Assembly (NCBI GenBank): GCA_004321885.1
Contig: SCQK01000004.1
Location: 1-64,000 of the forward strand
DNA length: 64,000 nucleotides
Direction: 5' to 3'
From: Patescibacteria group bacterium
GTDB lineage: Bacteria > Patescibacteriota > Patescibacteriia > Magasanikbacterales > GWA2-37-8
The notes under the pieces are model-generated. The model searched no databases. It was not told the origin of the DNA and saw nothing but the letters and a program-made list of their open reading frames with translations. This document shows, piece after piece, positions 1,325-1,704 of this stretch; positions within the stretch are counted from its first letter, which is position 1; every line of letters begins with the position of its first letter. The position numbers and the translations under genes are program-made.

Positions 1325-1460
1325 AATTAATGGTTCAGAAATATGTGTATTTTTTGCACATTGCTTTTTTTATAAATTTTTGATATATAACGAGCTAACC
1401 ACTGTGGACAATTTTTCTACTAGGTATTGACATTAAATGGACTATCTGATAATATAAACT

Positions 1461-1520
1461 TAGAAAAAGGCTTTCGGCCGTGGTTTCTATACCACACTTA
1501 GCGGAAAGTCCTTTTTTGTT
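1461..1520 (+). ncRNA. short hairpin small RNA, type 2 (copy A)
   Basis: Promoter: TTGACA 1427-1432, 17-nt spacer, TAATAT 1450-1455. Transcript is TTAGAAAAAGGCTTTCGGCCGTGGTTTCTATACCACACTTAGCGGAAAGTCCTTTTTTG. A ~10-bp stem (AAAGG-CTTTC / GAAAG-T-CCTTT) encloses hairpin GTGGT..ACCAC and is followed by a T run. A homologous unit sits at 61001..61058. Confidence 0.5.
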
Positions 1521-1704
1521 TTAATTTATCCTACCATCCCACGGAAAGACAGAATTAAAGTATGCCGAACGTAAATAGGTGCGCCTCTTTGATTTCCGTT
1601 TGATTTGAGTGTAAAGACCGAAAGCCCTGTCGTGTACTTCGCGGAAGTCGGTACCGGGGAATTTTTTTGTTTTCGTCTTGTATACCTGCATAATTCATAC
1701 TTCG

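Follow-up and report, generated by a model that had tools for sequence, protein, structure and literature searches.

A 64,000-nucleotide (nt) stretch of DNA from a Patescibacteria group bacterium (assembly GCA_004321885.1, contig SCQK01000004.1, positions 1 to 64,000), referred to here as the window, carries two copies of a short unit in which a promoter is followed by a hairpin. Each unit is predicted to be a self-contained small RNA (sRNA) gene with a strong sigma-70-type promoter. The gene is the fixed, convergent, tail-to-tail partner of a second gene, named X, that encodes a Patescibacteria-specific protein of 137 amino acids (aa). The RNAs, which match no Rfam 15 family, define a candidate new family of the cis-antisense kind with a shared terminator. 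In function, the RNA may be an antitoxin-like cis-antisense regulator of X whose hairpin also serves both genes as a bidirectional terminator; this is the favoured reading, held with a confidence that falls a little short of even. The window has two decayed X genes, each next to an sRNA gene that looks intact along with its promoter, and the nearby DUF3800 genes are neighbours only.

The two RNA genes of the window

The original prediction described a promoter-plus-hairpin small RNA in two copies, and each of its elements was recovered: the plus-strand positions (1427-1520 and 60967-61058), the TTGACA and TAATAT boxes separated by 17 nt, the common TTAGAAAAAGGCTTT (at 1460 and at 61001), and an interrupted hairpin of ~56 nt that ends in a U run. 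The spacer of both promoters ends in TG-A, and a promoter scan gave 10 of 12 consensus positions plus the TG extension. The transcript of copy 1, predicted to start at ~1462, would fold into an outer stem GGCUUUC/GAAAG(U)CC and an inner stem GUGGU/ACCAC. Copy 2, nearly identical to the RNA of a Candidatus Magasanikbacteria locus (L001), has the inner helix that had been proposed for it; the proposed GGTTT/AAACC pairing is a shifted register of the family-consensus stem GGGGU/ACCAC, which copy 2 forms with one G·A mismatch or A bulge.

The minimum free energy (MFE) on the plus strand is -21.9 kcal/mol for copy 1 (z -4.0) and -19.8 kcal/mol for copy 2 (z -4.3), as against -10.6 kcal/mol for the minus strand of copy 2, and none of 200 shuffles folded as well as either copy. 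A covariance model built from relatives, run on the unfiltered 64-kb window, matched copy 1 with 79.0 bits (E 2.4e-19) and copy 2 with 54.8 bits (E 1.6e-12). The copies' own reverse strands scored 23.6 and 23.3 bits and the best remaining match was a generic terminator-like hairpin of 20 bits, so that the window holds exactly two copies. A standard terminator scan misses the hairpin because the stem is interrupted. No Rfam 15 family matched the unit at gathering thresholds or at E <= 10, and ARAGORN found no tRNA or tmRNA in it. A small peptide as the product was rejected, since the only plus-strand open reading frame (ORF), at 1427-1501, starts within the -35 box and is not conserved.

The -35 box of copy 2 overlaps the start codon of recO (60973, minus strand), a gene identified by matches to Pfam RecO_N and RecO_C. 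The recO start (ATGTCAA) is the reverse complement of this -35, and within the sRNA gene there is a promoter-like sequence on the minus strand (TTGCCA-16-TATTAT, 61021 to 60994); the promoters of recO and of sRNA copy 2 may therefore overlap back to back.

A convergent protein gene as the constant partner

The similarity between the two copies continues past the U run (TTATCC..CGGAAA.ACAGAA). This had been noted correctly in the original prediction; its interpretation as non-coding did not hold, and the sequence is the 3' end of a protein gene on the minus strand, X, whose C-terminus reads ...F-x-S-V-F-P-(L/W)-D...stop. A third copy of the unit was located by an exact-pattern scan of one genome per species. 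It lies in Candidatus Magasanikbacteria RIFOXYD2_FULL_41_14 (L001), where an intact ORF of 137 aa on the opposite strand, ending ...ISVFPLDK-stop, has its 3' end in the region of downstream similarity. A pattern-scan match in Bacteroidetes (L002) was rejected as a chance terminator-like sequence (24.6 bits, no promoter).

Eighty metagenome loci were fetched by the X protein only, so that the sample was blind to the RNA. A covariance model (R1), built from 51 unique sequences, found the RNA in 76 of the 80 loci, or 76 of the 78 that were assessable, two of the four misses being contigs that end at or inside X. Six further loci also carry it, namely L001 and five places reached via four other X proteins. 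Groundwater of the Rifle and Hainich sites is the source of several loci. The RNA is always on the strand opposite to X, convergent and tail-to-tail, in a single copy downstream. A median of 4 nt separates it from the X stop codon, which the U run overlaps in 18 of 77 loci. One locus (L017) has two tandem X and RNA modules. In all, more than 80 independent loci carry the RNA with covariation, which upholds the claim of a conserved small RNA gene and disposes of the possibility, raised along with that claim, that the two copies stand alone as the remnant of a duplicated segment. Judged from these sequences, the constant partner of the RNA is X and not DUF3800.

Locus L059 has no R1 RNA. At the same position beside X, another convergent consensus promoter (TTGACA-17-TATAAT) is placed to drive a structured RNA of ~80 nt (487-620, minus strand), which retains CUUGGCGGAA and CGGCC motifs and looks like a diverged or rearranged version of the hairpin RNA.

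Selection on the RNA strand

The fold is conserved by compensatory change. Among 71 distinct sequences, 99.1% of the alignment cells form standard pairs, and 10 of the 14 pairs have changes on both sides (56 cells); the inner stem occurs as GUGG/CCAC, GUAG/CUAC, GGGG/CCCC, GAGG/CCUC and GCAG/CUGC. None of 500 shuffles reached the observed values, and slid registers fell to 33-56% paired. G·U occupies 157 cells and A·C a single one, and on the X strand ~16% of the pairs would be mismatched. The mean MFE is -22.2 kcal/mol for the sense and -15.1 kcal/mol for the antisense strand, the sense being more stable in 67 of 73. Because of the G·U and A·C counts, the conserved fold is judged to be selected on the promoter-driven (sRNA) strand. 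The strand-specific pairing and MFE thus argue that the element is neither a pure DNA palindrome nor a terminator selected for X alone.

The promoter is conserved with the hairpin. The -35 box is a perfect TTGACA in 51 of 70 unique upstream regions and has at most one mismatch in 60; TAnnnT is present in 56 and the TG extension in 41. The spacers of the relatives (16-17 nt) are unrelated in sequence, and the -10 box ends 4-6 nt before model position 1. This placement would start the transcript at (A)GAAAAAGG, the foot of the hairpin, and the RNA would consist of the hairpin and little else. The consensus 5' arm is 5'-A-G-A5, the outer stem GGCUUUC, G, G(c)C, C and the inner stem G-N-N-G-U; it is followed by the loop U-N-A-U-A-N and a 3' arm of A-C-N-N-C, A-A-(n)-U-U-R, G-C-G, GAAGGUC and U5-6. 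The unpaired bases G16, C22, U28, A30-U31-A32, A49, U53 and G58 are nearly invariant.

With a 5' A5 run and a 3' U5-6 run flanking the stem, the element is terminator-like in both directions. As in a Rho-independent terminator, U5-6 comes directly after the outer stem on the sRNA strand, and on the X strand the complement of the hairpin is followed by UUUUUC. This A-run, stem and U-run geometry on both strands, and a position always directly past the X stop codon, would suit an element that only terminates or insulates X, the RNA being functionless and the facing promoter either incidental or a means of transcriptional interference. Such a limited role is improbable. It predicts selection on the X strand, whereas the opposite is seen, in the excess of G·U over A·C cells and in an X-sense hairpin that is 7 kcal/mol weaker. 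Nor does it account for a consensus promoter that faces the hairpin at a fixed distance, behind unrelated spacers, in most of 70 diverse loci, or for loops and internal loops conserved far beyond what a terminator needs.

Upstream of the promoter, TTATCCACA, the DnaA-box consensus, lies 7-11 nt from the -35 box in 12 of 70 loci (L001, L007, L012, L023, L030, L032, L060, L070, L076, L078 and others), where ~1 is expected by a rough estimate. Window copy 1 has an inverted variant, TGTGGACAA, at 1403-1411, 15 nt upstream of the -35 box. These sites may reflect regulation by DnaA or another factor. A replication origin was rejected, as the sites occur in a minority of loci only and the genomic contexts vary.

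Protein X and its remnants

X survives in the window as two remnants (Table 1). The one beside copy 1 has an internal deletion of ~85 codons, and its stop codon lies 4 nt from the sRNA 3' end. Its N-terminal part, at 1557-1691 within sequence that had been taken as non-coding, gave a tblastn match over aa 1-45 (53% identity, E 3e-9) and was also aligned to 14 full-length X proteins. The fragment beside copy 2 encodes ...FAGSTPNNEIFFVQIKEDRQTDQKWFISVFPLDK-stop, is 91% identical to the L001 protein P0001 (tblastn aa 104-137, E 1.6e-16), and is truncated upstream by the promoter of a DUF3800-II RNA. No intact X gene was found in the 64 kb by tblastn; one could lie outside it.

Table 1. Positions of the sRNA genes, of X and its fusions, and of the neighbouring RNA
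Feature	Position	Strand	Description
sRNA copy 1 promoter	1427..1455	+	-35 TTGACA 1427-1432, 17-nt spacer with TG extension, -10 TAATAT 1450-1455
sRNA copy 1 (predicted)	1461..1518	+	~56 nt; A-run, internal loop, U6 tail; covariance-model match 1461-1516
X remnant beside copy 1	1521..1691	-	56-aa in-frame ORF, X residues 1-47 plus last ~6 residues
sRNA copy 2 promoter	60967..60995	+	TTGACA, 17-nt spacer with TG, TAATAT
sRNA copy 2 (predicted)	61002..61058	+	~55 nt; CUUUUGGC...GUCGAAAG family variant; covariance-model match 61002-61056
X 3' fragment beside copy 2	61070..61185	-	X residues ~101-137, YIFAGSTPNNEIFFVQIKEDRQTDQKWFISVFPLDK then stop
DUF3800-II RNA (RF02961)	61251-61314	+	67 bits; ~200 nt from copy 2
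STAND-X fusions	L088 203-2260; L089 2501-4711; L090 307-2517		GC-richer contigs

X matched nothing in Pfam, NCBIfam or PDB sequences, and its only PADLOC hit was weak (Cmr6, E 0.018); no description of X or of the RNA was found in the literature. Clustering of the family gives at least 1,227 groups at 90% identity and at least 299 at 50%, and relatives, where named, are all Patescibacteria. The protein is very basic, has no transmembrane segment and carries invariant Arg, Lys and Tyr residues. An AlphaFold2 model from a 57-sequence alignment (pLDDT 92, pTM 0.86) predicts a globular alpha/beta structure with an N-terminal helix, a helical insert and a C-terminal sheet of 3-4 strands. In Foldseek the model gave recurring matches to RNA-cleaving toxins of the RelE/BECR type that were too weak (E 0.12-1.1) to pass a safe threshold. 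Profile and PDB sequence searches revealed no recognisable RNA-binding domain.

Deleted or short forms of X are frequent, among them natural forms that omit residues ~52-98. The X domain is also found as the C-terminal domain of STAND NTPases, in the arrangements HNH-STAND-X (P0169, 685 aa) and NACHT-X (P0200, 736 aa); the sRNA was looked for beside these fusions and none was found downstream. The neighbourhoods of stand-alone X vary and include ftsH, MgtE/Nramp, Fic with HicA, and a tyrosine integrase that lies 4 nt upstream together with a type I restriction-modification system. These variable neighbourhoods, the tandem modules of L017, the frequent short forms and the STAND/NACHT fusions speak in favour of a toxin-antitoxin-like or selfish X. 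A phage origin was rejected, since X is absent from the viral contigs of IMG/VR.

In 31 of 72 loci (L006, L008, L011, L015, L017, L036, L046, L076 and others) the X start codon is preceded at 4-12 nt by the end of a -10-like box, often TGnTAnAAT, and no Shine-Dalgarno sequence is evident by eye upstream of X. Many lineages therefore probably have an X mRNA with no leader or almost none.

A second link inside the X coding sequence

Codons ~21-26 of X (K-K-A-F-G-Q/L) are often written AAAAAGGCTTTCGGCC, which is the sRNA 5' strand. Among 69 unique coding sequences, that strand has its best match within X at these codons in 36, and the match is identical at 12 or more of 14 positions in 18. Resampling of synonymous codons was beaten at p <= 0.05 in 19 of the 69, and a control region had no such excess. 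The codons used for A-F-G are GCT in 21 of 21 cases (35% elsewhere in X), TTC in 12 of 21 (25%) and GGC in 16 of 21 (28%). In L067 the same G to A change is present in the sRNA and in the codon site. In 23 of 69 the sRNA 3' strand also forms its best duplex with this site, where ~2.5 are expected per bin. The site lies inside the ORF, not at the translation start, and is strong in 18-23 of the 69. The signal is real but seen in part of the family only; it may stem from a second pairing site, from mimicry of a protein-binding site, or from a recombination repeat. A hairpin within the X mRNA, formed by copies of both sRNA halves, was rejected: only the 5' half recurs, and likeness to the 3' half is found in L076 only.

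In the DNA, codons 21-26 and the sRNA 5' strand form an inverted repeat of 14-21 nt that brackets most of X. At ~14 of 70 loci a further inverted repeat of 20 nt, AAATTTTGGCCTTTTCTTTT, encloses the entire module with its promoters, as at 603-622 and 1188-1207 of L036 and in L006, L011, L046, L076 and ~10 more. Its outer segment covaries between the arms (GCCGATATGCG in L036, GCTATGCG in L006). It is not present at the window copies. These flanking repeats could be the ends of mobile cassettes or paired operator sites.

Both kinds of repeat, the variable genomic contexts and the locus with an adjacent integrase would fit an element that works as DNA and not as RNA, marking one end of a small mobile cassette or acting as a site of recombination or inversion. 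This is very unlikely. G·U pairing restricted to one strand points to RNA and not to DNA, and the conservation of the promoter would be left unexplained. In addition, no inverted or excised forms were seen in ~86 loci, and X does not occur on viral contigs.

How the RNA may act

The sigma-70-type promoter is predicted to start transcription at the foot of the hairpin, and the U tail to end the transcript at ~56 nt. If the RNA is a cis-antisense regulator, the hairpin would be a bidirectional terminator common to both convergent transcripts, and by that sharing the 3' end of the X mRNA would be the exact complement of the whole sRNA. An abundant sRNA would pair with this 3' end, starting loop to loop, possibly with additional pairing at codons 21-26, and the pairing would lower the stability or the expression of the X mRNA. 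X itself would be a harmful or tightly dosed effector.

Several points weigh against antisense regulation. Conservation of the internal loop is not required of a cis-antisense RNA, and the near-invariant G16, C22, A49, U53 and G58 and the loop U-N-A-U-A fit a protein-binding RNA at least as well. The likeness at codons 21-26 is strong in about a quarter of the loci only. The pairing counts ignore phylogeny and come from an alignment (A6) fitted to the model. Finally, intact sRNA genes beside two dead X genes hint at a role beyond the adjacent X.

The RNA could alternatively be a ligand of protein X, as part of a ribonucleoprotein, as a type III-like antitoxin or as a decoy that binds X. The likeness at codons 21-26, a copy of the sRNA 5' strand at the nucleotide level, would then be a binding-site mimic in the X mRNA for autoregulation, as in ribosomal-protein operons. 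This is a possible reading, though on the unlikely side. It would account for a fold selected on one strand, for near-invariant unpaired nucleotides and the G·G (or G-C) geometry of the internal loop, and for the strict adjacency of RNA and protein genes that other RNA-protein pairs also have. The very basic X, with its invariant Arg, Lys and Tyr and a confident model that is weakly RelE/BECR-like, is consistent with it as well. It is harder to reconcile with a protein that has no recognisable RNA-binding domain, with STAND-fused X domains that have no sRNA, and with the persistence of both window sRNA genes beside an inactivated X. Nor does a ligand need to share a terminator tail-to-tail at a median gap of 4 nt, which is a hallmark of cis-antisense pairs. 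Antisense regulation and protein binding, both among the functions first suggested for the RNA, are retained as the two leading readings; nothing supports the third suggestion, a processed guide-like RNA.

A broader proposal, put forward as doubtful, is that X and the hairpin RNA form an unrecognised two-component system with a wide distribution in the Patescibacteria, a new RNA-antitoxin or RNA-guardian class that is neither type I nor type III. X would be a new RNase-like effector domain, used also in STAND NTPases, and a minimal RNA would mirror the X terminator and recognise or mimic a site in the X coding region. Orphan sRNAs such as those of the window would act in trans on other X genes or targets.

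The DUF3800 neighbourhood

The original prediction placed the RNA near DUF3800 genes of the window, and the reading taken from it is a further DUF3800 motif that acts with DUF3800 proteins or with small RNAs A-C. Both window copies do lie within 150-300 nt of a DUF3800 gene, X at one related locus (L042) is flanked by a DUF3800 fragment and a DUF3800-II RNA, and numerous RNA motifs with no relation to one another are known from the surroundings of DUF3800 genes (PMC5737381). The association is nonetheless scarcely credible as a functional one, and the evidence largely refutes it. A cmscan of 1300-2000 and 60800-61500 with the Rfam models DUF3800-I...XI at E <= 10 gave no match to the unit, and the sole match in these regions was the DUF3800-II RNA outside it (Table 1). 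L042 is the one locus of ~86 related ones with a DUF3800-like ORF, by tblastn and a 3-sequence hidden Markov model of limited sensitivity, and the one of 20 scanned by Rfam with a DUF3800-II RNA. DUF3800 gene B of the window (10236-10718) has no RNA copy according to the covariance-model search. The start sequence TTAGAAAA, said to be shared with small RNA B, has 7 matches in the window where 4.6 are expected, which is not significant.

The DUF3800-II RNA beside copy 2 has a consensus promoter at 61199-61226 (promoter region 61182-61226) and a terminator at 61311-61330, and is convergent with DUF3800 gene C (61336-61878, minus strand). The order at L042 of DUF3800 fragment, DUF3800-II RNA, X and sRNA matches that at window copy 2, and DUF3800 cassettes may therefore tend to land beside X.

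Small RNA B (~10033-10145, plus strand) is promoter-driven, structured and convergent with DUF3800 gene B (minus strand). It has no Rfam match at E <= 1 and has GUCCGCGAGGA in common with DUF3800-II. The pair is flanked by 96-nt direct repeats that are 99% identical (9894-9989 and 10753-10848), as if it were an inserted cassette. A repeat of 110 nt (98% identical) abuts the X remnant of copy 1 at 1699-1808 and recurs at 7681-7790, just 3' of a tRNA-Arg gene (7514-7587). The tRNA-Arg region is itself duplicated (4058-4243 and 7514-7699; 186 nt, 91%), and GGCTCCA...TGGAGCC inverted motifs are found at 4228-4266, 9928-9966 and 10787-10825. The repeats around copy 1 and tRNA-Arg look like an integration hotspot.

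Comparison with known systems

At the par locus of pAD1 (PMC7472228), two transcripts from convergent promoters end at one bidirectional terminator; the stem-loops of this terminator initiate their pairing, and a second region of complementarity is also present. The X and sRNA genes resemble this Fst/RNA II system in the convergent promoters for mRNA and sRNA (the par sRNA is ~40 nt; PMC7472228), in what appears from sequence to be one shared bidirectional intrinsic terminator, in a candidate second pairing region nearer the mRNA 5' end, and in chromosomal copies in variable contexts. They differ in that Fst is a hydrophobic membrane peptide of 33 aa, whereas X is a soluble, basic protein of 137 aa with a predicted alpha/beta fold. 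The sRNA described here is essentially the terminator hairpin alone, and its second site is within the coding region (codons 21-26) and not at the ribosome-binding site, and is an inverted and not a direct repeat in the DNA. There is no sequence homology. The layout, taken with the selfish-element-like behaviour of X, is what favours an antitoxin-like cis-antisense control. X is not a member of the Fst family because it is not a small (<60 aa) hydrophobic membrane peptide.

Bacillus has type I systems that overlap at the 3' end, txpA/RatA and bsrG/SR4. Like the RNA beside X, their antitoxins are cis-encoded antisense RNAs with a strong promoter and a 3'-end overlap with the target mRNA. These antitoxins and SymR are 75-220 nt long and overlap coding sequence, whereas here the overlap covers the terminator and the stop codon only; SymR also differs in overlapping the 5' end of its target. 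In the nuclease-type pair SymE/SymR (PMC1891008), SymR is likewise a cis-encoded antisense RNA with a strong promoter, and SymE is an example of a type I toxin that is soluble, RNA-targeting and ~110 aa long. Neither SymE nor the Bacillus toxins have homology to X.

In type III (ToxIN-like) systems, an RNase toxin is bound directly, and thereby neutralised, by a small structured RNA encoded next to it. The toxin itself processes these antitoxins, which form tandem repeats upstream of its gene and on the same strand. The RNA beside X is by contrast a single convergent hairpin with its own promoter, on the opposite strand and downstream of X in all loci; the pair is not a type III system.

DUF3800-II (Rfam RF02961) and the other DUF3800 motifs (Weinberg et al. 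2017, PMC5737381) are likewise short structured RNAs with their own promoter and intrinsic terminator, found in the Candidate Phyla Radiation (CPR) and other uncultured bacteria beside one particular protein gene. The hairpin RNA differs from them in sequence and fold, with no covariance-model match, and in its partner, X; its orientation is fixed, convergent and directly next to the stop codon, while DUF3800 motifs are found on both sides of their gene and on both strands. Finally, bidirectional Rho-independent terminators between convergent genes share with it an A-tract, a GC-containing stem and a U-tract. Unlike these, the element has its own consensus promoter ~37 nt upstream, a fold selected on one strand only, conserved internal and apical loops, and a long interrupted stem.

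Significance

The annotation of the window is corrected by this analysis: it contains two X pseudogenes, and the hairpin RNA has no link to DUF3800. The wider interest lies in the Patescibacteria (CPR), which make up a large share of bacterial diversity and in which, to our knowledge, almost no regulatory RNAs or toxin-antitoxin-like modules have been defined. The RNA family described here is supported by covariation, has no counterpart in Rfam 15 and belongs with an orphan protein family. If the RNA is part of a ribonucleoprotein, it would add a lineage-specific RNA-protein machine. If the pair is a toxin-antitoxin or guardian system, it would add a new effector fold and an unusually minimal RNA antitoxin.

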